Positions 1,505 through 10,512 of a DNA stretch of 11,155 nt are shown here, piece after piece. The position numbers and the translations under genes are program-made. Under the pieces are notes generated by a model. That model saw only the letters and a list, made by a program, of their open reading frames with translations, was not told the DNA's origin and made no database searches. Source of the stretch: an uncultured Deinococcales bacterium (GTDB lineage Bacteria > Deinococcota > Deinococci > Deinococcales > JAAFIG01); NCBI GenBank assembly GCA_964244895.1, contig CAXTKV010000035.1, positions 1 to 11,155 on the forward strand. The letters are read 5' to 3'. The first letter of the stretch is position 1. The number at the start of each line of letters is the position of its first letter.

Positions 1505-1559
1505 CGAGAACACCGTCCGGGACGATGTTCTTAACTTGTCGCACTGGACGGTGTTCCCG
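1505..1559. repeat. Intergenic palindromic repeat family, copy A
   Basis: cgagaacaccgtcc (1505-1518) pairs with ggacggtgttcccg (1546-1559), 13/14. The left arm also forms its own palindrome, agaacaccgtcc-g-ggacgatgttct (1507-1531), 11/12. Confidence 0.9.
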
Positions 1560-1567
1560 TATTTTTT

Positions 1568-1618
1568 GTAGGGGCGAAGCGTGCTTCACACTGTGCGCGC
1601 TTCACACGACGCCCCCAC
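1568..1618. repeat. GTAG-tagged REP-like element
   Basis: GTAGGGGCG (1568-1576)...CGCCCCCAC (1610-1618) inverted ends, 8/9. Internal direct repeat gcgtgcttcacac (1579-1591) / gcgcgcttcacac (1595-1607). Confidence 0.6.
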
Positions 1619-1657
1619 GCGGGTTTACGTGCGTTCCCGAGGCTTAACGCCCGAGGC

Positions 1658-2662
1658 TCAGAACGCCTTGGCGAACTTATCGATGTTCGACTTGTCGAAG
1701 GTGAACGGCTCGCCCATCACGGCTTCCGTGTTGGCGTCCAGCGTGGCCATGCCCATGCGACCCATGCTGATCTTCTCGCCGGGCTTACCGGTGGCCTTGC
1801 CGGTCACGAACTGGTACGCCAGGTACACGGCGCTGTAGCCGAAGTCGATCGGGTTCCAGAGCGCGAAGGTGTCCACGGAACCGTTCTTGACGTAGCTGAT
1901 CATCTCGGACGGCAAGCCCAGACCGGAGACGAAGACCTTACCGATCAACTTCTGATCCGTCACGTACTTGGCGGCGGCGGCGATGCCGACGGTCGTGGGC
2001 GCGATGATGCCCTTCAGGTTCGGGTACTTGGTGATCAAGCCCTGCGCCTCGCGGTAGGACTTGTCGCTGGCGTCGTCACCGTAGACCACGTCAACCAGCT
2101 TCAAATCCTTGTACTTGGGGTCCTTCAGGGTTTCTTTCATGGCCGCGATCCAGTTGTTCTGGTTGGTGGCCTGCGCGGTGGCGGACAGCACCGCGATTTC
2201 GCCCTTGCCGCCGATGGTCTTGGAGATCATCTCGATCTGCTTGCGCCCGATCAATTCCGTGTTGGACGGGTTGAGATGCATCAAACGCCCGTCCTTGGCG
2301 ACGCCCGAATCCCAGGAAATCACCTTGACGCCGCGCTCGGTGGCTTTCTTCAGGGCGGGCACGAGCGCGTTCGTGTCGTTGGCGCTGATGGCGATGGCGT
2401 CCACCTTCTGCGCGACCAGGGCGTTGATCTGCTCGATCTGGCCTTCGGCGGTGGCGGTGGTCGGGCCGGTGTAGATCAGTTCCACGTCCCCGAGTTCCTT
2501 GGCGGCTTCCATTCCGCCGTCCCTTGCAGCCTCGAAGAAGCCGTTGCCGAGGCTCTTGACCAGCAGCGCGATCTTCTTCTTGCCCTGCGCTTCGCCCGTG
2601 CCGATCACGGCGAGCGCCGCCGCGCCCAACAATGCTGCACCGACCAGAATGGCTTTCTTCAT
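1658..2662 (-). CDS. rhaS: Rhamnose ABC transporter substrate-binding protein (RhaS-type periplasmic binding protein)
   Basis: True start is ATG at 2662 (MKKAILVGAALLGAAALAVIGTGEAQG, signal peptide) with SD GAGGAGG just upstream; 334 aa. Motifs LVKSLGNGFFEAA...IYTGPTTATAEGQI...AISAND...SWDSGV...GLGLPSEM...ALWNPIDFGY match the rhizobial RhaS family. This is not the E. coli AraC-type regulator RhaS. Confidence 0.9.
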   Translation of the reverse strand: MKKAILVGAALLGAAALAVIGTGEAQGKKKIALLVKSLGNGFFEAARDGGMEAAKELGDVELIYTGPTTATAEGQIEQINALVAQKVDAIAISANDTNALVPALKKATERGVKVISWDSGVAKDGRLMHLNPSNTELIGRKQIEMISKTIGGKGEIAVLSATAQATNQNNWIAAMKETLKDPKYKDLKLVDVVYGDDASDKSYREAQGLITKYPNLKGIIAPTTVGIAAAAKYVTDQKLIGKVFVSGLGLPSEMISYVKNGSVDTFALWNPIDFGYSAVYLAYQFVTGKATGKPGEKISMGRMGMATLDANTEAVMGEPFTFDKSNIDKFAKAF

Positions 2663-2690
2663 GCGTTCCTCCTCGCAGTGCTGACCGAAC

Positions 2691-2709
2691 AGCGCCGTCC
2701 CGGACGATG
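2691..2709. repeat. Intergenic palindromic repeat family, copy B (degenerate half copy)
   Basis: agcgccgtcccggacgatg resembles the family arm aacaccgtccNggacgatg; it lies in the putative rhaS 5' UTR. Confidence 0.55.
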
Positions 2710-2727
2710 CCGGGCCAAAGCAGAACA

Positions 2728-2743
2728 AAAGTCGAACGACTTT
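2728..2743. promoter_or_regulatory. Candidate operator palindrome upstream of rhaS
   Basis: AAAGTCG-AA-CGACTTT, a perfect 7-2-7 inverted repeat between the putative promoter and the rhaS start. Confidence 0.35.
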
Positions 2744-2781
2744 CGCACATGAATCTGTTGGTTTGTCACACTGTACGAACA

Positions 2782-2811
2782 AAGATAGCGCAAGCTTCAA
2801 TCGTCCGTCAA
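2782..2811 (-). promoter_or_regulatory. Putative sigma70-type promoter of the rha ABC operon
   Basis: The minus strand reads TTGACG (2811-2806)-18 nt-TATCTT (2787-2782) in an AT-richer patch. AAGCTTCA occurs both within the spacer and just upstream (TGAAGCTTCA palindrome, 2816-2825). Confidence 0.5.
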
Positions 2812-2836
2812 CTGGTGAAGCTTCATCAATCGAGAG

Positions 2837-2896
2837 GCAGCCGTGAGCCGCAAGCCGCAAGGGTTTAGCTTGCGGCTTGCGGCTAATGGCTTGCGG
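2837..2896. repeat. Inverted heptamer tandem array forming a perfect 16-bp hairpin
   Basis: gcagccg|tgagccg|caagccg|caag - ggtttag - cttgcgg|cttgcgg|ctaatgg|cttgcgg. agccgcaagccgcaag (2846-2861) pairs perfectly with cttgcggcttgcggct (2869-2884). Confidence 0.85.
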
Positions 2897-2899
2897 CCT

Positions 2900-2942
2900 A
2901 CCATCCCGGACGCGATCTCGAGAATGCGTCCTGAACGGTGTC
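2900..2942. repeat. Intergenic palindromic repeat family, copy C
   Basis: accatcccggacgcgatctcgagaatgcgtcctgaacggtgtc aligns with copy D and shares the ctcgagaatgcgt centre. Confidence 0.8.
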
Positions 2943-2950
2943 CATGAACG

Positions 2951-2956
2951 TATACT
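2951..2956 (+). promoter_or_regulatory. -10 box of a probable leaderless promoter (pxpA)
   Basis: TATACT-cgaggc-ATG: hexamer 6 nt before the start codon. Confidence 0.65.
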
Positions 2957-2962
2957 CGAGGC

Positions 2963-3739
2963 ATGAGAATAGATCTGAACGCGGACGCGGGGGAATCTTT
3001 CGGCGCGTACAGCATCGGCGACGATGCGGCCCTGATGCCGGTCATCACCAGCGTCAACCTGGCGTGCGGATTTCACGCGGGCGATCCGATGGTCATGCGC
3101 GATTCCGTCAAGCTGGCCATGCAGCACGGCGTGGAAATTGGCGCGCACGTCGGCTACCCGGATCGGGTGGGCTTCGGACGGCGCGTGATCGACGCCACCC
3201 CAGACGAGGTTTACGCCGATACCCTCTACCAGATCGGCGCGCTGCGGGCGTTCATCCGCGTGGCCTCCGGCGATCCGCGCGGCGGGCGGATGCAGCACGT
3301 CAAACCGCACGGCGCGCTCTACAACCACATGATCCATCACGAACCCACCGCGCGAGCCGTCGCCAGGGCCGTCCACGATTTCTCCGAGACGCTGCCCGTG
3401 GTCGTGCTGGCGGGTTCCCGGTGCGCGGAATGGGTCAAATCGGAGGGCGCGAGCGTGATCGAAGAACTCTTCGCGGATCGCGGCTACGCGCCCGACGGCA
3501 CGCTGCTGCCGCGCTCGAAACCCGGCGCGCTGCTCACCGACCCGGAAGCAGTCGCGGCTCGAGTCGTGAAGATGGTGCTCGAGGGGAAAGTCTCGACTTC
3601 CGGCGGCGAGATTGCGGTTCGCGGTCAGACCGTCTGCTTCCACGGCGACACGCCCGGCGCGGCCAGTATTGCCCGTGCTGCGCGGCGCGCGCTCGAGGCG
3701 GCGGGCGTTGAGATCAAAGCCATGCGCGCCAAAGAATGA
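2963..3739 (+). CDS. pxpA: 5-oxoprolinase subunit A (LamB/YcsF family)
   Basis: MRIDLNADAGESFG...NLACGFHAGDP...GAHVGYPDRVGFGRR...HVKPHGALYN...FADRGY...TVCFHGDTPGA are the canonical LamB/YcsF motifs; 258 aa. Confidence 0.95.
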   Translation: MRIDLNADAGESFGAYSIGDDAALMPVITSVNLACGFHAGDPMVMRDSVKLAMQHGVEIGAHVGYPDRVGFGRRVIDATPDEVYADTLYQIGALRAFIRVASGDPRGGRMQHVKPHGALYNHMIHHEPTARAVARAVHDFSETLPVVVLAGSRCAEWVKSEGASVIEELFADRGYAPDGTLLPRSKPGALLTDPEAVAARVVKMVLEGKVSTSGGEIAVRGQTVCFHGDTPGAASIARAARRALEAAGVEIKAMRAKE

Positions 3740-3748
3740 TGCGTTTGG

Positions 3749-3767
3749 CTCGAGTCTGAATCTCGAG
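3749..3767. terminator. Short hairpin between convergent genes (possible weak terminator)
   Basis: ctcgag-tctgaat-ctcgag, two XhoI palindromes in the 30-bp gap between two convergent stop codons; no clear U-tract. Confidence 0.25.
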
Positions 3768-3769
3768 TT

Positions 3770-4534
3770 CTACAGACTTGCGGGATTGGTGGTTGTGTTT
3801 GCTGCGGGCGTCGCTGTGGCGTGCGCCGTGAATGCACCGAAGAACTCGCGCCAGTACCACCCAGTAGCGGTATTGAGGACGAGTCCACCCAATGCTGTTA
3901 AAAAAATGGCGGTACGCGCTTCGCTGGGCATTGGCAATGCGGAAAGGCTAATAAACATGAGATATAAAAACATGATGACATTACATACCAAAGCCACCAT
4001 GTACCAGTTTCGCAGCGTTTTGCTCAACGCCCCGAATGCGTATGTGACGCGCCGCATCTCAGTCCAGAGGGTGGCATCAGTAATCCAGGCTTTATACCAA
4101 CCCATTACTGCGTATCCGACCCAAAAAACAATTTCGATGATGACGTAAAATACGACCATTGGGAGTTCTATGCCTGTAGTTAACCCTCGAATCAACAGGA
4201 TGACGACCAGAAGGACTCCAAAGATAGCAATTATGACCTGAAAGGCTCTCATCCAGCGTCCTAGTGTCTCAGTGAGTTTTTGAACACGTTGGGTCTGATC
4301 TGTGCGCTCCTCGAGCAAGATCGAACTAATTCGGGCGACCCATTCTGCCCACCAAGTTGTCAGGATGTATCCGAAAACAGCGCTCACGAGGCGGCCCAAA
4401 ATGACCCCTACTGAATTCTGATTCGGCTGCGGGAACAAAATGCTTAACAACGACAACGCGGGTAGTACGAATCGGCTGATGTTCAACCACAAGACAAGGT
4501 TGCGTGAGACGTTTTCCAGATTGCTCGAATTCAT
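3770..4534 (-). CDS. Hypothetical multi-pass membrane protein (~6 TM) with apparent 3-fold internal repeat
   Basis: 254-aa ORF filling the gap between genes, with about six hydrophobic segments and a TACGAT -10-like box 6 nt before the ATG. GC is markedly lower (sampled 60-mers 38-48%) than in neighbouring genes. Confidence 0.8.
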   Translation of the reverse strand: MNSSNLENVSRNLVLWLNISRFVLPALSLLSILFPQPNQNSVGVILGRLVSAVFGYILTTWWAEWVARISSILLEERTDQTQRVQKLTETLGRWMRAFQVIIAIFGVLLVVILLIRGLTTGIELPMVVFYVIIEIVFWVGYAVMGWYKAWITDATLWTEMRRVTYAFGALSKTLRNWYMVALVCNVIMFLYLMFISLSALPMPSEARTAIFLTALGGLVLNTATGWYWREFFGAFTAHATATPAANTTTNPASL

Positions 4535-4540
4535 CTTGCC

Positions 4541-4546
4541 ATCGTA
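4541..4546 (-). promoter_or_regulatory. -10 box of a probable leaderless promoter (membrane protein gene)
   Basis: Minus strand reads TACGAT-ggcaag-ATG, 6-nt spacer. Confidence 0.6.
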
Positions 4547-4600
4547 CTCGACCGCAAGGATCGAGGATGTGCAGGCACGATGGCGTTCAACTCAAATCTC

Positions 4601-4652
4601 GAGAACATCGTCCCGGACGCAAACTCGAGAATGCGTGTGGCACGGTGTTCTC
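4601..4652. repeat. Intergenic palindromic repeat family, copy D
   Basis: gagaacatcgtcccggacgcaaactcgagaatgcgtgtggcacggtgttctc; terminal gagaaca/tgttctc inverted repeat with CTCGAG in the centre. Confidence 0.9.
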
Positions 4653-4685
4653 TTGAAGATTCGCGTCTCGGCCCTTGAGCGAGAT

Positions 4686-5576
4686 TCAGGTCGCTGATTT
4701 CGTCGTCAGCCCAATCAATGTTGCCTTTGCGTTCCGCATGTGAAAATCCTTGTAGAACGCTTCCACACCATCAGGCTCGAGGTTCAGGCTTCTGATGGCA
4801 TCCTCGAAATTCCAACCGATGCGCTCGGGCAAATCTTCGAGATCCATCCAGTGTTCCGGCAGATTTCCCGCGCCAATTGTGCGCCTCGCGTGTGCCTCGA
4901 GCGTGGCGTAATACGAGAGGTTGCGCGAGATCAAACCGGGATCGCTCGTACCGCCGTGGCAGGGCAGAACCACGCTCGGGTTCAACGCTTCCAGGTTCCG
5001 CAACGTCCGGAGCAGCACGGGCAGATCGGTGGGATTCTTGGCGTAAGGCCACGGGTGTTCGGCGGCGTCGGCGGCCAGCAGCGCGCGCAATTCCGGAATC
5101 CACACGACCGCGTGATCCTCGCTGTGACCGGGCGCTGGAATCAATTCCAGCGTCAAATCCCCGCCGTGAATCGTGAAGCGATCCGTGAACGTCAGCGTGG
5201 GCGGCACGAGGCGCACGTTCGCGTATCTCTGGTCTGTGGCCTGAGCATTCCGCAATTTCTCGAGCGTTTCAGGGCTTCTGGCGATCCCAACTGATTTCTC
5301 GTGACCGATGATCGGTGCCATACCGTCAAACGTGGTGTTCCCCCAGACGTGATCGCTGTGCTGGTGCGTGTTCACGACCAGCAGCGCTCGAGATTCAAGG
5401 TCTGGTTGGATCGCGGCGAGCATCTGCGCGGCGTCTTCCGGCGTGATCATCGTGTCGATCACGACCACGAACCGTTGTGTGGTCACGACGAAACAATCCA
5501 CGTCGTCGGAATGGAACAACTGGATTCTGTCGTCCCAATCGCTGTGACCTTCGGTCACGGTTTTCTCGAGATCCAT
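4686..5576 (-). CDS. MBL-fold metallo-hydrolase (glyoxalase II/cyclase-like)
   Basis: VVIDT, NTHQHSDHVWGN (HxHxDH), APGHSEDH, AADA and LPCHG metal-binding motifs; 296 aa. Substrate unknown. Confidence 0.9.
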   Translation of the reverse strand: MDLEKTVTEGHSDWDDRIQLFHSDDVDCFVVTTQRFVVVIDTMITPEDAAQMLAAIQPDLESRALLVVNTHQHSDHVWGNTTFDGMAPIIGHEKSVGIARSPETLEKLRNAQATDQRYANVRLVPPTLTFTDRFTIHGGDLTLELIPAPGHSEDHAVVWIPELRALLAADAAEHPWPYAKNPTDLPVLLRTLRNLEALNPSVVLPCHGGTSDPGLISRNLSYYATLEAHARRTIGAGNLPEHWMDLEDLPERIGWNFEDAIRSLNLEPDGVEAFYKDFHMRNAKATLIGLTTKSAT

Positions 5577-5642
5577 ACCGATCAGTATTCATCCCCCGCC
5601 TGAGTTTCGCCTCAGCCCGTGCGTCCCTGTCGCCGCTTTTGT

Positions 5643-5702
5643 CCTCCCCTGCCTCGGTAGGGGAGGTGTCATCCTCGCGGTTTTCGAGGATGACGGAGGG
5701 GT
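5643..5702. repeat. Double-hairpin intergenic element (CCTCCCC...GGGGAGGTGTC...GACGGAGGGG type)
   Basis: Stem 1: cctcccctgcc/ggtaggggagg (5643-5666, one G-T). Stem 2: gtcatcctcg/cgaggatgac (5668-5694, perfect 10 bp). Followed by ggagggg. Confidence 0.75.
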
Positions 5703-5711
5703 CGCCTTCAA

Positions 5712-5759
5712 GAGCACCGTCCAGCACGCAATTTCAGGAATGCGTGCTGGACGGTGTTC
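5712..5759. repeat. Intergenic palindromic repeat family, copy E
   Basis: gagcaccgtccagcacgca-atttcaggaa-tgcgtgctggacggtgttc: 19-bp stem (one G-T) with a 10-nt loop, 2 bp from the hemW stop codon. Confidence 0.92.
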
Positions 5760-5761
5760 CC

Positions 5762-6898
5762 TTACAGAAATTCCGACACGACCGCGTTCAGCACCCAAAT
5801 CCCGTCCGGCGTGGCGCGTACCGTTTCGCCGTCCGTCTCGAGCAAGCCTTGTGTAATCAACGAATCGAAGGCGCGCGCGAACCTGGCGCGCACGTCCACG
5901 CCGGAACGATTCGAGAGTTCCGTCAGGTTCACGCCGCTCTTGAGCCGCAATCCAGAAAAGAGCGCGTCCGTGACGAACTCCTCGCCGCTGACAGGTTCCA
6001 GCGATCCGTCCTGAAGGCTGGCGCGCGCACCCTCGAGCCAGGATGGTAACGGCGGGTTCTTGCGGCGCTCGGAGACGGCGTGCTCTGACAGTGAAGGGTA
6101 ATGTCCGGTCGCGCTCGGGCCGAGTCCGAACCAGAAGCGGTTCTCCCAGTACGCGATGTTGTGCCGCGATTCGCGCCCCGGCCTGGCGTGGTTGCTGACC
6201 TCGTAACGCTCCAAACCGTACTCGAGCAGCACGCTTTCGGCCAGTTCGAGCGCGGTTTCCTCGTCCTCCTCGCGCACTTTGACGCCCTGGCGCGCGAAGG
6301 GCGTGCCGTCCTCGATGGTCAGGGTGTAGGCGCTGATGTGTTCCAACCCGACGCTGGCCAGGGCGCGCAGGTCGCGTTCCACGTCCTGTCCGGGCACGGC
6401 GGTGATCAGGTCGGCGCTGACGCGGAATCCCGCCTCGAGCAACATCGCCAGCGCCGTGTGCGCCTGCTTTGAATCGTGGGTGCGCCCCAGGAATTTCAGC
6501 ACGTCGTCTTGCGTGCTTTGCACGCCCAGGCTGGCGCGGTCGAAGCCCAACTCGCGCCAGAGTCGAGCGCGGGCTTTCGTGACCGTGCCGGGGTTGACTT
6601 CCAGGGTCGCCTCGCCGCCATGCGCAAAGTCTGGAACCCAGCCGAAGGCGCTCTTGATGGTGGTCACGAAGTCCGTGATCTCGCGGTCGCGCAGAAAGGA
6701 GGGCGTGCCGCCGCCGACGTAGATGGTCGTCAGGTGTGATGGGAACTCGTCCGCAAGCTCCCGTGCCTCTCGCTCGAGTTCCGCCAGGTACGCGTCGACC
6801 AGCCCGGAGCGCCGCTCCAGGACGTGAAAATCGCAGTACGGACAGATCGTCGGGCAGAACGGCACGTGAGCGTAGAGGTGGCGGATCGGGTCGGGCAT
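5762..6898 (-). CDS. hemW: Radical SAM heme chaperone HemW (HemN-like)
   Basis: Start probably ATG at 6898 (MPDPIRHLYAHVPFCPTICPYCDF, CxxxCxxC), then YVGGGTPS, LEVNPGT, YEVSNHA and HNIAYW (the HNxxYW motif typical of HemW); 378 aa. The ORF-track extension to 7921 is antisense to the next gene. Confidence 0.92.
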   Translation of the reverse strand: MPDPIRHLYAHVPFCPTICPYCDFHVLERRSGLVDAYLAELEREARELADEFPSHLTTIYVGGGTPSFLRDREITDFVTTIKSAFGWVPDFAHGGEATLEVNPGTVTKARARLWRELGFDRASLGVQSTQDDVLKFLGRTHDSKQAHTALAMLLEAGFRVSADLITAVPGQDVERDLRALASVGLEHISAYTLTIEDGTPFARQGVKVREEDEETALELAESVLLEYGLERYEVSNHARPGRESRHNIAYWENRFWFGLGPSATGHYPSLSEHAVSERRKNPPLPSWLEGARASLQDGSLEPVSGEEFVTDALFSGLRLKSGVNLTELSNRSGVDVRARFARAFDSLITQGLLETDGETVRATPDGIWVLNAVVSEFL

Positions 6899-6931
6899 CG
6901 CGGGGTTCACGGTACATGAATCCTGCGCCTT

Positions 6932-6987
6932 CAGGAACACCGTCCAGCACGATGTTCGTGTATTTACGTCCAGGACGGTGTTTCCTG
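6932..6987. repeat. Intergenic palindromic repeat family, copy F
   Basis: caggaacaccgtccagcacgatgttcgtgtatttacgtccaggacggtgtttcctg, between divergent hemW and the dehydrogenase gene. Confidence 0.9.
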
Positions 6988-7027
6988 GCGTGCGGCGCTG
7001 GAATGTTGGCGGTGGAATACTGGGCGC

Positions 7028-8098
7028 ATGGAAGACCTGACCATCCGCGCACCGCAACTTCAGGCCGCCGTTCAGATCATCGTGGAACGGGGCGGCAGCA
7101 GCCCGCTCGAGGCGGAGCGCGTGGCCTCGAACCTGATCGAGGCGAACCTGACCGGGCACGATTCGCACGGTGTGGGCATGATCCCGCGCTACGTGGCGGC
7201 GCTCCAGGATGGCGGCTTGCGGGTCAACCAGCACGTCAGCCTGGCGCTGGACGCGGGCGCGATGCTCCGACTGGACGGTCACGCGGGCTACGGCCAGGTG
7301 ATCGGCCTGGAAGCCATGCAGCTCGGCATCGAACGGGCGAGGGCGCAGGGCGTGTGCGCCCTCGGGATCGCGGGTTCGCACCACCTCGGGCGGATCGGGC
7401 ACTGGGCGGAACAGTGCGCGGCGCAGGGGCTGATCTCGATGCACTTCGTCAACGTCGTCTCGAGGCCGGTCGTGGCGCCGTGGGGCGGGCGCGATGCGCG
7501 GCTCGGCACCAACCCGGTCTGCGTCGGCATTCCCAGGGCGGATCGACCGCCGATCGTTCTGGATTTTGCCACCAGCCGGATCGCGCAGGGCAAGACCCGC
7601 GTGGCGCGCAACCGCGGCGAGGACGTGCCGCCGGGCGTGCTCATAGACGACCTCGGCGATCCGACCACCGATCCCAAATACGCCGTGGTTCCGCCGTTCG
7701 GCGCGATCCTGCCCTTCGGCGAGCACAAGGGCTACGGCCTGGCGTTGATCTGCGAGTTGCTCGGCGGCGCGCTGACCGGAGGCCAGACGCAGCACGGGCT
7801 GGACGGCGGGCAAAAGCGCATCCTGAACGGGATGTTCTCGGTGATCATTGACCCGAACGCGATGGGCACGGCGGCGCACCTGACGGCGGAAACGGAGGCC
7901 TTCGCCGCCTGGGTGCAGCAATCGCCGCCATCCGGGACGGAACCCGTGCAGTTGCCCGGCGATCCCGAACGCGCCCGTAAACGCGAGCGGCTCGAGCGGG
8001 GCATTGCGGTGGATGCGATCACCTGGGCGGAGATCCTTCAGGCTGCCGAATCGCTCGGCCTCGAGCCTGATGTGGTGTCTCGCGCAGCGGGTGCTTAA
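7028..8098 (+). CDS. Malate/L-lactate/ureidoglycolate dehydrogenase, Ldh_2 family (YbiC/HcxB-like)
   Basis: EANLTGHDSHGVGMIPRY, SHHLGRIGHWAE, GTNPVC, LDFATS, FGEHKGYGLA and LPGDPER are Ldh_2 family motifs; 356 aa. AATACT lies 6 nt before the ATG. Confidence 0.9.
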   Translation: MEDLTIRAPQLQAAVQIIVERGGSSPLEAERVASNLIEANLTGHDSHGVGMIPRYVAALQDGGLRVNQHVSLALDAGAMLRLDGHAGYGQVIGLEAMQLGIERARAQGVCALGIAGSHHLGRIGHWAEQCAAQGLISMHFVNVVSRPVVAPWGGRDARLGTNPVCVGIPRADRPPIVLDFATSRIAQGKTRVARNRGEDVPPGVLIDDLGDPTTDPKYAVVPPFGAILPFGEHKGYGLALICELLGGALTGGQTQHGLDGGQKRILNGMFSVIIDPNAMGTAAHLTAETEAFAAWVQQSPPSGTEPVQLPGDPERARKRERLERGIAVDAITWAEILQAAESLGLEPDVVSRAAGA

Positions 8099-8159
8099 GG
8101 CATTTCATTCTGCTCGAGTACGTGTGGGGATCAACCCTCGGGCTTCGGGAATTTTTCGT

Positions 8160-8181
8160 GAGAACACCGTTCCAGACGATG
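8160..8181. repeat. Intergenic palindromic repeat family, copy G (half copy)
   Basis: gagaacaccgttccagacgatg matches the left arm of copy A; no intact right arm. Confidence 0.75.
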
Positions 8182-8242
8182 CGCGCCGCCATGTGCGAAA
8201 TGAACGCGAGATCGGCTTCGGCGCGCCCTAAACTGCTCACAT

Positions 8243-8707
8243 ATGCGTCTTCTTCGCTCGTTGACAGTGCTGTCCATTTGCGCCCTGACCCTGCTCGCGT
8301 GCGCGCCCGCCGCCACCACGAACGCCCGTCCCGCTTCGGCGCTCGAACGGATCGCCATCAAGGGCAGCGACGCCTGGACGATGGTGGCCTCCAGGGCCGA
8401 CAAATCGGAGGATCGCAGCTTCAAAATTGAGCTTCTGGAAGACCCGCAGGTGACGCGCACCGGGATTTACATCGCCGAGGCGAGCGCGGGCAAGTTCGAC
8501 GCGCTGGTGTTCTTCTTCCCGAAGGACGACACCATCGCCGTGCGGGTCGATCTGGATCGCAACAAGGACCCGCAGGTGATCGTCTGCGTCTTCCCCCAAA
8601 CCGTCGCGAGCGGCGTGCAGTTCACGGGCAGCGCGTATTTCGGGTTGTTGAGCGGACTGGAAAACGCGAGCGGTTACGGTCGGTGCGCGCTCAACAAGAA
8701 CCAGTAG
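8243..8707 (+). CDS. Hypothetical lipoprotein
   Basis: MRLLRSLTVLSICALTLLA-C has a signal peptide II with lipobox LLAC; 154 aa; host-like GC3; TAAACT 8 nt upstream of the ATG. Confidence 0.8.
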   Translation: MRLLRSLTVLSICALTLLACAPAATTNARPASALERIAIKGSDAWTMVASRADKSEDRSFKIELLEDPQVTRTGIYIAEASAGKFDALVFFFPKDDTIAVRVDLDRNKDPQVIVCVFPQTVASGVQFTGSAYFGLLSGLENASGYGRCALNKNQ

Positions 8708-8741
8708 TCGCTCGACGCTTCAAAGGCGAGTTCTGTAGCTC

Positions 8742-8794
8742 GAGAACACCGTCTGGCGCGCATTCTCGGGATGATCGCGCCAGACGATCTTCTC
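8742..8794. repeat. Intergenic palindromic repeat family, copy H (reverse orientation)
   Basis: gagaacaccgtctggcgcg-cattctcgggatgat-cgcgccagacgatcttctc, 17/19 stem. The loop carries cattctcg, the reverse complement of the cgagaatg centre of copies C and D. Confidence 0.88.
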
Positions 8795-8849: not shown

Positions 8850-10154
8850 GTGATTGACCGTTATTCCACTCCTGAAATGCGCGCCCTCTGGAGCGAGGCC
8901 AACCGTTACCGCGTCTGGCTCGAGGTCGAACTGGCCGCCGTGGACGCCTGGGTCAGCCTGGGCGAGGTTCCAGCCGATGCCGCCGCCGACCTGCGCGAGC
9001 GTTCCGTGGCCGACCCCCTGGACGACGCCTTCGCGGAGCGCGTCGCGGAAATCGAGGCCGTCACGCGCCACGACATCGTGGCCTTCACGACCGCGCTGTC
9101 CGAGCGCTACGGCCAGAACGCGCGCTTCGTGCACAAGGGTTTGACCAGCACGGACGTGGTGGACACCGCGCAGAACATCGTGCTGCGCCGCGCGTTGGGG
9201 ATCGTGGCGGCGGACGCCGTGCGCCTGCGCGATGTCTGCCGCGATCAGGCGGTGCGCTACAAGCACACGCCCTGCATCGGGCGCACCCACGGCATTCACG
9301 CGGAACCCATGACCTTCGGCCTGAAATTCCTGAACTGGATGTCGGCCTTGAACCGTGACCTGGAACGATTGGATCGCTCCACGCGCGCGATTTCGGTGGT
9401 GATGCTCTCGGGCAGCGTCGGGACGTTCGCGCACGTCAGCCCGAAAATAGAGGGCATCGTGGCCGAAACGCTGTCCCTCGAGATCGATCCGGTCACGAAC
9501 CAGACCATCGCGCGGGATCGGCACGCGGAAGTGCTTTCGGCGCTGGCCATTCTGGGCACGAGCCTGGAAAAGATTTCCATCGAAATCCGCCACCTGCAGC
9601 GCTCAGAGGTGCGCGAGGCGATGGAGCCCTTCAGCCTCGGTCAGAAGGGCTCATCTTCGATGCCGCACAAGAAAAACCCGATCGGCACGGAGAACATCGC
9701 GGGCCTGGCGCGGATCTTGCGCGGCAACCTTCAGGCGGGCCTGGAGAACGTGGCGCTCTGGCACGAGCGCGACATCTCGCATTCCAGCGTGGAGCGCATC
9801 ATCTTGCCCGACAGCACGACCCTGGCCAGTTACGCCACGCGGCGTCTGGCGGGCATCCTGGAAAAACTGGTCGTGTTCCCGGAACGCATGATGACCAACC
9901 TGGACGGGCTGGGCGGACTGGTGTACTCGCAGCGCGTGCTGGGCTTGCTGCTCGATCACGGCCTGATGCGCGAGGCCGCCTACGAGATCGTGCAACGAAA
10001 CGCATTGCAGGCCTGGGAATCCAGTACATCCTTCCGAGATCTCTTGGAGCGCGACCCGGAAAACCCCTTGAAGGGCGCGAGCCTGGACGCAGCCTTCGAT
10101 CTGGGCTGGTACCTGCGCGAGGTGGACACGATCTACGCGCGGTTCGGGCTGTGA
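8850..10154 (+). CDS. purB: Adenylosuccinate lyase
   Basis: MIDRYSTPEM...TRHDIVAF...HKGLTSTD...GRTHGIHAEP...QKGSSSMPHKKNP (fumarate-lyase signature)...WHERDISHSSVER; GTG start; 434 aa. Confidence 0.97.
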   Translation: MIDRYSTPEMRALWSEANRYRVWLEVELAAVDAWVSLGEVPADAAADLRERSVADPLDDAFAERVAEIEAVTRHDIVAFTTALSERYGQNARFVHKGLTSTDVVDTAQNIVLRRALGIVAADAVRLRDVCRDQAVRYKHTPCIGRTHGIHAEPMTFGLKFLNWMSALNRDLERLDRSTRAISVVMLSGSVGTFAHVSPKIEGIVAETLSLEIDPVTNQTIARDRHAEVLSALAILGTSLEKISIEIRHLQRSEVREAMEPFSLGQKGSSSMPHKKNPIGTENIAGLARILRGNLQAGLENVALWHERDISHSSVERIILPDSTTLASYATRRLAGILEKLVVFPERMMTNLDGLGGLVYSQRVLGLLLDHGLMREAAYEIVQRNALQAWESSTSFRDLLERDPENPLKGASLDAAFDLGWYLREVDTIYARFGL

Positions 10155-10512
10155 GCCCGCAAGCCGTCGTGCAGCGCCAGCTCGAAGCGTACAACGCCCG
10201 CGACATCGACGCGCTGATGGAAACCTACGCCGACGACGTTCAGGTCTATGAGCATCCAGCCACGCTGTTGGCGAGCGGCGCGGCGCAACTCCGCGAGCGC
10301 CAGAGCGTGCGCTTGCAGGAACCCAACCTGCGCGCGCGCACCTGGTCAACCGCATCGTGACGGGCGACCTGGTGATCGATCACGAGATCGTGACCCGCAC
10401 CTTCCCTGAGGGTAGTGGACGGCTCGAGATGGTCGCCATGTACGAGGTGGACGCCGCAAAGATCGCTCGGGCGTGGTTCGTGTTCGGCGCCAAAACCCTC
10501 GATGCGGATTGA
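10151..10512 (+). pseudogene. SnoaL/NTF2-like protein gene, frameshifted in a (GC)5 tract
   Basis: The GTG start overlaps the purB stop (GTGA). VVQRQLEAYNARDIDALMETYADD...EPNL continues in another frame as HLVNRIVTGDLVIDHEIVTRTFPEGSGRLEMVAMYEVDAAKIARAWFVFG...TGA(10512). Removing 2 nt from gcgcgcgcgc (10330-10339) gives an intact 119-aa ORF. Confidence 0.85.

Follow-up and report, generated by a model that had tools for sequence, protein, structure and literature searches.

Paired dyad boxes at helical-turn spacings, spread evenly between the genes of an uncultured Deinococcales bacterium

The window analysed here, bases 1 to 11,155 of contig C35 in the draft genome of an uncultured Deinococcales bacterium (GCA_964244895.1; hereafter G000), carries between its genes several copies of a dyad motif, here called the box, which recurs thousands of times in the genome. 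The boxes are probably docking sites, kept by selection, for a putative lineage-specific protein complex that would read duplex DNA and wrap about 190 bp every 1.5 kb. Five properties of the boxes are established here: their geometry, the phase of their flanks, their even spacing, their persistence in relatives, and the presence of insertion-free boxes in conserved genes.

The genome measures 5.12 Mb in 328 contigs, has a G+C content of 62.7% and is 91% complete. Its 4,310 genes (79% coding) were called with a simple model of our own which misses atypical genes, and long intergenic gaps may conceal uncalled ones. Boxes were searched for with a half-site matrix, which gave 8,426 strand matches in G000 against 254 in a fifth-order Markov control; left and right half-site matches pair at a 21-base span 3,378 times. 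The box, GAACACCGTCC-N-GSACG..., is a dyad of 21–27 bp with the half-site GAACACCGT and the core CGT-N5-ACG. It is laid out as an outer half, (G/A)AGAACACCGTCC, a variable centre base, and an inner half in which GSACG is followed by GTGTT or by the looser CAWWT. ACCGT and ACG are conserved at 83–99% and the spacer hardly at all; the core positions are 93–99% conserved, yet nearly all doublets differ from one another (806 of 807 and 552 of 552).

The 5,048 box centres fall into 3,109 clusters: 1,881 doublets, 1,200 singlets and 28 larger clusters of three to four boxes, which flank ordinary genes. Centre-to-centre, the doublets are spaced chiefly at 25 (809), 26 (144), 35 (553) and 36 bp (206), that is, 953 at 25/26 and 759 at 35/36, with minor classes at 34 (38), 30/31 (52), 41 (25) and 24 bp (19). 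The bare CGT-N5-ACG core, sought without the matrix, gives the same peaks (518 at 25, 336 at 35 and 112 at 36 bp) over a background of about 10. The main spacings, 25/26 and 35/36, are one helical turn apart. The strong halves point outward in 795 of 851 pairs at 25 bp, and at 30/31 bp, a half-turn offset, they point inward in 21 of 47 pairs and outward in 4. Two main spacings separated by one turn, and a polarity that changes at the half-turn offset, are as expected where proteins bind cooperatively to the same side of the double helix.

Outside the outer box the A/T content rises and falls every 11.4 bp, in a phase locked to that box. The phased run extends about 75 bp outward on each side of the box, the amplitude being 0.042, 0.026 and 0.016 out to +90 at constant phase and gone beyond. 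Flanks that are more than 90% coding behave in the same manner (0.030, 0.030 and 0.022; n = 828). There is a weak general 11-bp autocorrelation in G000, and composition-matched anchors placed away from boxes reached at most 0.011 in 23 of 24 cells, with a shifting phase. Since unique flanks cannot travel with a copied element, the phase suggests selection on DNA shape around a bound complex some 190 bp wide.

The elements lie overwhelmingly between genes, 2,653 of 2,966 (89%) being wholly intergenic against 514 expected. Occupied gaps of 100–200 bp number 145 among the 172 convergent ones, 459 among the 709 tandem and 49 among the 128 divergent; divergent gaps hold 364 clusters, and boxes frequently abut stop codons. 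There is about one cluster per 1.5 kb and about one box per kb. Clusters are spaced more evenly than under random placement in non-coding DNA (coefficient of variation 0.82 vs 1.29), and gaps of 800 bp hold a mean of only 0.98 clusters, compared with 0.70 in gaps of 100 bp.

Such a pattern could also belong to a DNA uptake or self-recognition signal of the DNA uptake sequence (DUS) or uptake signal sequence (USS) kind, spread by biased uptake and recombination and read by a lineage-specific receptor. In the available parts of PMC2817400 and PMC2397512, DUS likewise occur at about one per kb, evenly and with no need of insertion, and preferred reading frames, absence from acquired regions and inverted pairs after genes are further features held in common. 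The box-free stretches of G000, the longest of which are 55 and 38 kb, fit this explanation, integrase genes being present in 3 of the 25 longest, as do ComEC- and DprA-like genes found by motif. ComP (PF16732) was matched in none of 19 genomes and in no control genome either, so that search is uninformative. We nevertheless regard an uptake signal as quite unlikely. Only about 5% of the boxes are coding, against 34.5–65% of DUS/USS in the portions of the literature available, and DUS act singly, without turn-dependent pairing. The phased 190-bp footprint far exceeds known uptake motifs, and DUS pairs serve as terminators, whereas the boxes have no U-tract. An uptake signal here would be, to our knowledge, the first outside the Neisseriaceae and Pasteurellaceae. 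Acquired DNA in G000 could be dated by its density of boxes.

The family has a narrow distribution. G000 has 946 matches to the doublet pattern, compared with 0–7 in each of 300 other Deinococcota genomes, where the reversed control gives 0–5; a 16-mer found 1,166 times in G000 occurs at most three times in 40 relatives. The perfect palindrome had one isolated match across the genome collection, in an unrelated genome (L233), and none in the plasmids searched. No doublets were found in the viral contigs searched, which gave 88 single half-site matches, by estimate roughly chance level. By these counts the boxes appear to be limited to one genus. Genome G006 has an excess of CGT-N5-ACG (109 vs 55), but its matches are scattered and show no spacing peaks.

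A different palindrome, CTCGAG, is hyper-abundant in G000 in the manner of HIP1 (21,883 copies, 4.3 per kb), and its excess is family-wide, at 4.8–7.3 per kb in all eight family genomes sampled (loci L031–L070). The box-free regions C5:1-55057 and C15:2358-40409 still carry it at 3.5–3.9 per kb. CTCGAG abuts 10–15% of outer box ends.

The preliminary description of this DNA took the unit to be a palindrome or hairpin of about 50–55 bp and offered an RNA-stability element as one option. Hairpins in RNA, selected at the 3' ends of genes to terminate transcription or stabilise mRNA, would account for the top occupancy of convergent gaps and the peak abutting stop codons, and doublets are able to fold: five of the six in the window form good hairpins (−13 to −24 kcal/mol). 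Any inverted pair would do so, however, and the two single boxes that were folded gave −0.9 and −1.6 kcal/mol (z −0.36 and +0.46), neither better than shuffles; as many as 1,200 of the 3,109 clusters are single boxes. No covariation was found within the box. Between the arms of a doublet, the 26, 35 and 36 classes show no concordance in excess of partner shuffling and the 25 class a small one, so the compensatory look of the inner stems noted earlier, real in the copies then labelled E and H, is not typical of the family. In the transcribed orientation G-U is no commoner than A-C (482 v 528, 374 v 457 and 188 v 159), TTTT stands behind only 51 of 839 oriented doublets, and as many as 364 clusters stand in divergent gaps. 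Nothing in Rfam scored above its gathering score, the only matches being to miRNA-like hairpins far below it. The hairpin is not what selection keeps, and selection for an RNA hairpin is very improbable as the origin of the boxes.

Although the boxes are mainly extragenic, 257 of the 4,696 of at least 14 bits lie wholly within called genes. In 3,415 confident coding regions they exceed synonymous shuffles threefold at 14 bits and about tenfold at 24 bits or more (44 vs 5, 4 and 3). Coding pairs keep the family's geometry, 36 of 40 standing at 24–26, 30 or 34–36 bp, while the shuffles give three to four pairs in all. Spacings of 30 and 34 bp account for 14 of these 40 pairs but for only 73 of the 1,881 doublets overall, which fits pairs formed under the limits of the reading frame rather than pairs that arrived ready-made. 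Strong coding boxes lie a median of 986 bp from non-coding boxes, against 576 bp for random coding positions (n = 83, p = 2e-8), and weak ones show no shift, so coding boxes occupy holes in the spacing.

Eleven of the 64 coding cases listed were aligned with orthologues from other genera. The pairs in PheT and MiaA, like the single boxes of 35–36 bits in AlaS and a GntR regulator, align without a gap to five of five orthologues that lack the motif; ancestral residues are retained in and between the boxes, and several amino acids have changed. FadB, GlcE, PurD and NuoG differ from their orthologues by a few codons at most, LpxD has three to eight extra codons, and in RecQ the box lies in a linker where the alignment is uninformative. 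Orthologues cover 43 coding sites, of which 16 show no net gap; 11 of these 16 are boxes of at least 20 bits.

What the preliminary description proposed, a non-autonomous element like the repetitive extragenic palindromes (REP) with its mobiliser encoded elsewhere, corresponds to a REPIN-like (REP doublet) or MITE-like (miniature inverted-repeat transposable element) sequence in two size classes of about 50 and 60 bp. It would have spread long ago or slowly by a transposase missing from the assembly, and the conserved positions would be those that the enzyme reads. Inverted doublets at fixed distances, 89% of elements in intergenic DNA, the folding of window doublets, weak arm covariation in the 25-bp class and an insertion-like copy in MetH all speak for it, as does the incompleteness of an assembly at 91%, multi-copy transposase genes often failing to assemble. 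The mobiliser was sought among the Y1, reverse transcriptase, DUF559, GIY-YIG and tyrosine integrase families. No match to the Y1 transposases, which include the REP-associated tyrosine transposases (RAYT; PF01797), was found in G000, whereas 16 of 18 family genomes have one. There was no reverse transcriptase match; DUF559 gave one weak match (a 213-aa frame), GIY-YIG one that is UvrC-like by its length (a 613-aa frame), and the 11 tyrosine integrase matches include none seen to be marked by special arrays. Direct repeats flanking the elements are not above shuffled pairs, although old target-site duplications could have decayed. Nor was a young subfamily of near-identical copies found, identity to the nearest neighbour being 0.85 against 0.83 after column shuffling, and 0.79 against 0.74. 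The even spread of clusters is unlike that of REPIN doublets, which the accessible part of PMC3116915 describes as random in extragenic space. Gap-free coding boxes and pairs, and phased flanks in unique and coding DNA that a copied element could not transport, argue in the same direction, and a mobile element of this type is an unlikely origin for the family.

Two other kinds of repeat were considered and set aside. CRISPR-like arrays were rejected at four boxes or fewer in a row. Integron attC sites, a comparison prompted by the AAC...GTT ends and the stop-codon overlap of attC, were rejected because the boxes are symmetric, occur in both orientations and beside core genes, and lack covariation.

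Boxes also persist where relatives can be compared. In run X2, from a relative of about 90% identity, contigs span window boxes 2701, 6946/6972, 8173 and 8755/8781 with no room for their loss, as judged from lengths rather than letters. They likewise span six L160 clusters, one piece excepted, which falls 28 bases short across three clusters. In that relative the gap with 1519/1545 is unaligned and 16 bases shorter. In a metagenome contig (L071) whose adjoining proteins are 52% and 74% identical, a pair is kept at the orthologous place at a spacing of 36 vs 35 bp with a diverged spacer.

Several observations weigh against docking sites kept by selection. Element-bearing intergenic gaps are a median of 67.5 bp longer than in relatives (n = 28), compared with 5 bp for gaps without an element (n = 24). 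Gaps shorter than 30 bp make up 8 of the 28 orthologous ones, against 0 of 11 controls. At several junctions a box pair stands where the relatives' genes abut, with about 50 bp gained, often right after (just 3' of) the stop codon. Against a fairer control, element-free gaps of at least 45 bp (n = 11, median +24), the gain is not significant (p 0.14). Gain of length at these sites indicates that some copies came with new DNA; it is the chief support for a mobile, REPIN-like history. Fold-back duplication of a box may be an alternative source of the added length, and would also explain the arm concordance of the 25-bp class, which is real: its arms agree at 14.79 positions out of 18, compared with 14.33 ± 0.03 when partners are shuffled, and 8.8% are perfect against 2.3%. 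In addition, 57 of 809 copies have a neighbour at least 92% identical, and the boxes occupy nearly every permissive gap irrespective of gene class, a pattern that selfish spread could produce as well. MetH has about 18–20 extra residues at its pair relative to four of five orthologues, FtsK too has extra residues at its pair, and 11 of the 43 covered coding sites have at least four extra codons; the orthologues come from other genera throughout, with intermediate states unseen. One small control set for the flanks (TGTTCT in non-coding DNA, n = 269) reached 0.022 in one window, and the gene calls come from our own simple model only. The search for a binder, finally, gave no candidate. GyrA, GyrB and TopA have ordinary, family-wide domain contents with no extra domains, and a codon-bias screen of small proteins in G000 yielded none.

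That a protein binds the boxes, that DNA is wrapped there and that the boxes have a function we infer from the patterns set out above. A protein dimer would read each box in duplex DNA through the GAACACCGT half-site and the CGT-N5-ACG core, and two dimers would cooperate on the same helix face across the A/T-rich spacer, while the flanks, with their 11.4-bp repeat, may curve around the complex or be wrapped on it. Between transcription units, nodes of this kind, about one per 1.5 kb, would most likely manage supercoiling or compaction; they might for example pin a supercoil loop or load the single gyrase. Sites would come about through substitution or short-patch conversion, selection favouring an even spacing, and some 50 bp of length would be gained where there is room. 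It is possible, though we lean somewhat against it, that the boxes form a sequence-encoded, nucleosome-like layer in one Deinococcota genus, in which some 3,000 self-assembling addresses, set at even intervals, would each have about 190 bp wrapped by a new complex, and selection would have rewritten codons and amino acids in essential genes and phased the neighbouring coding DNA. Gyrase and TopA being ordinary and family-wide, box specificity would need another protein, and if the boxes are docking sites its gene is to be expected among gene gains confined to the one genus. G000 has one GyrA/ParC-type gene, and its TopA has a helix-turn-helix-like tail that is conserved across the family (L234, L236). 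Three HU-like paralogues were found by motif at C10:5198-5500, C103:16593-16886 and C117:13596-13862.

In the window itself, whose genes are ordinary (sugar ABC transporter, lamB/ycsF, metallo-beta-lactamase (MBL) hydrolase, hemN-like, Ldh_2 and purB), all eight repeat features of the preliminary description were recovered, six of them as box pairs and two as single boxes. Two pairs of the 26-bp class lie at 1506..1558 (centres 1519 and 1545, 33 and 19 bits), between the sugar ABC ATPase gene and the periplasmic binding-protein gene, and at 6933..6985 (6946 and 6972, 30 and 28 bits), in a divergent gap; a third, at 8742..8794 (8755 and 8781, 25 and 16 bits), is upstream of purB. In the 25-bp class are the pairs at 4601..4652 (4614 and 4639, 28 and 26 bits) and at 5710..5761 (5723 and 5748, 35 and 32 bits), the latter abutting the hemN-like stop codon, and a pair at 2894..2945 in the divergent gap before lamB/ycsF, in which one box is decayed (2907, 4 bits; its partner 2932, 23 bits) and which folds no better than shuffles. 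The single boxes are at 8160..8186 (centre 8173, 15 bits) and 2688..2714 (centre 2701), the weak one, at 6 bits, being under the count threshold.

The box scan confirmed a copy in each intergenic gap of the window longer than about 100 bp. That none lies inside a gene holds for the window, where the best in-gene matches (9.8 and 8.9 bits) are at chance level, and fails for the genome in view of the 257 coding boxes. The unit is the dyad box of 21–27 bp, mostly paired, instead of a palindrome twice that length; as each supposed arm is itself a dyad box, the former half copies are whole single boxes, and the orientation once assigned to the copies (H reversed relative to C and D) is ill-defined. 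The absence of a GTAG tag stands, the consensus having no terminal tag and CGTC occurring internally only. A lineage-specific extragenic family with thousands of copies, most of them outside the window, was correctly foreseen, as was the lack of a catalogued match. A genome-wide protein-binding element, then listed as one option, agrees with the reading preferred here; of the others, the mobile element with a distant mobiliser is poorly supported by the results above and the RNA-stability element is not supported.

Other repeats adjoin the boxes. At 1568-1615 a separate GTAG-tagged REP-like hairpin (GTAGGGGCG...CGCCCC) borders a box pair; its 9-mer has 84 copies in G000 despite the lack of any match to a Y1/RAYT gene. 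A hairpin of GCCGCAA heptamer units at 2839-2891 is a third repeat type, with 37 matches to its 12-mer in the genome. The repeat CTCCCCTGC...GGGGAGG...GACGGAGGGG at 5641-5704, of a type which we take to be often found beside DUF559 genes, has 78 matches to its 9-mer. Among the genes, an open reading frame for a 254-aa membrane protein at 3770-4534 (minus strand) is of lower G+C content, has no Pfam match, is poorly covered in run X1 and looks recently acquired. Among 18 family genomes, the purB type of the window (8850-10154; 75% identity) was seen in genus g2 alone, and the rest gave distant lyase matches only. A SnoaL-like gene at 10151-10512 lies in two frames (10151-10360 and 10357-10512), possibly through a frameshift.

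Our literature search, which covered sources other than subscription journals and supplements, found no description of the box motif; for Deinococcota, the available part of the RepRanger paper (PMC12306157) gives only palindrome counts, for three of them. The boxes bear on the purpose and spread of abundant repeats such as REP, HIP1 and DUS. REP/REPIN-RAYT systems and the bacterial interspersed mosaic elements (BIMEs) are extragenic palindromic units that form inverted doublets at preferred distances, according to the parts of PMC3116915 and PMC3733652 at hand, and the boxes resemble REP/REPIN-RAYT in abundance, extragenic position and paired layout. They differ in having no terminal GTAG or CGTC tag, a unit that is no stem-loop and no RAYT in the assembly, and further in their even spread, spacings one turn apart, gap-free coding copies and phased flanks. 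DUS and USS in the Neisseriaceae and Pasteurellaceae, as presented in the available text of PMC2397512 and PMC2817400, arise by mutation and recombination and not by insertion. Like the boxes they are frequent (about one per kb), even, present in coding DNA without insertion and missing from acquired regions; the boxes have a longer dyad motif, turn-dependent pairing, a coding share of about 5% and 75-bp phased flanks.

A parallel to the phased flanks is the gyrase motif of E. coli, which the consulted part of PMC6379681 gives as 130 bp, a 36-bp core and two 47-bp flanks with an A/T-G/C periodicity attributed to wrapping; the same source names BIME-2 of E. coli as strong, transcription-independent gyrase sites. 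Both the motif and the boxes have a central segment with periodic flanks on either side, but the gyrase motif is degenerate with a phase of about 10 bp, whereas the boxes are base-specific, have a 46–57-bp core and a phase of 11.4 bp, and with their flanks extend over about 190 bp. HIP1 of cyanobacteria, a hyper-abundant palindrome with a selected distribution, has been proposed to act in chromosome structure (PMC5861425, in the part available). Its counterpart in G000 is the CTCGAG excess, from which the boxes differ in being long, paired, mostly intergenic and of one genus. In the usual view, proteins of little sequence specificity do most of the packing of bacterial chromosomes, and the sites that organise them number in the tens: parS, matS, SlmA and Noc sites are dyads read on duplex DNA by a chromosome-organising protein, regional and unpaired. 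The boxes, in contrast, number thousands, are paired and cover the core genome, and such base-specific, helically phased and evenly set sites, which reshape protein sequences, would if confirmed amount to a different design of chromosome.

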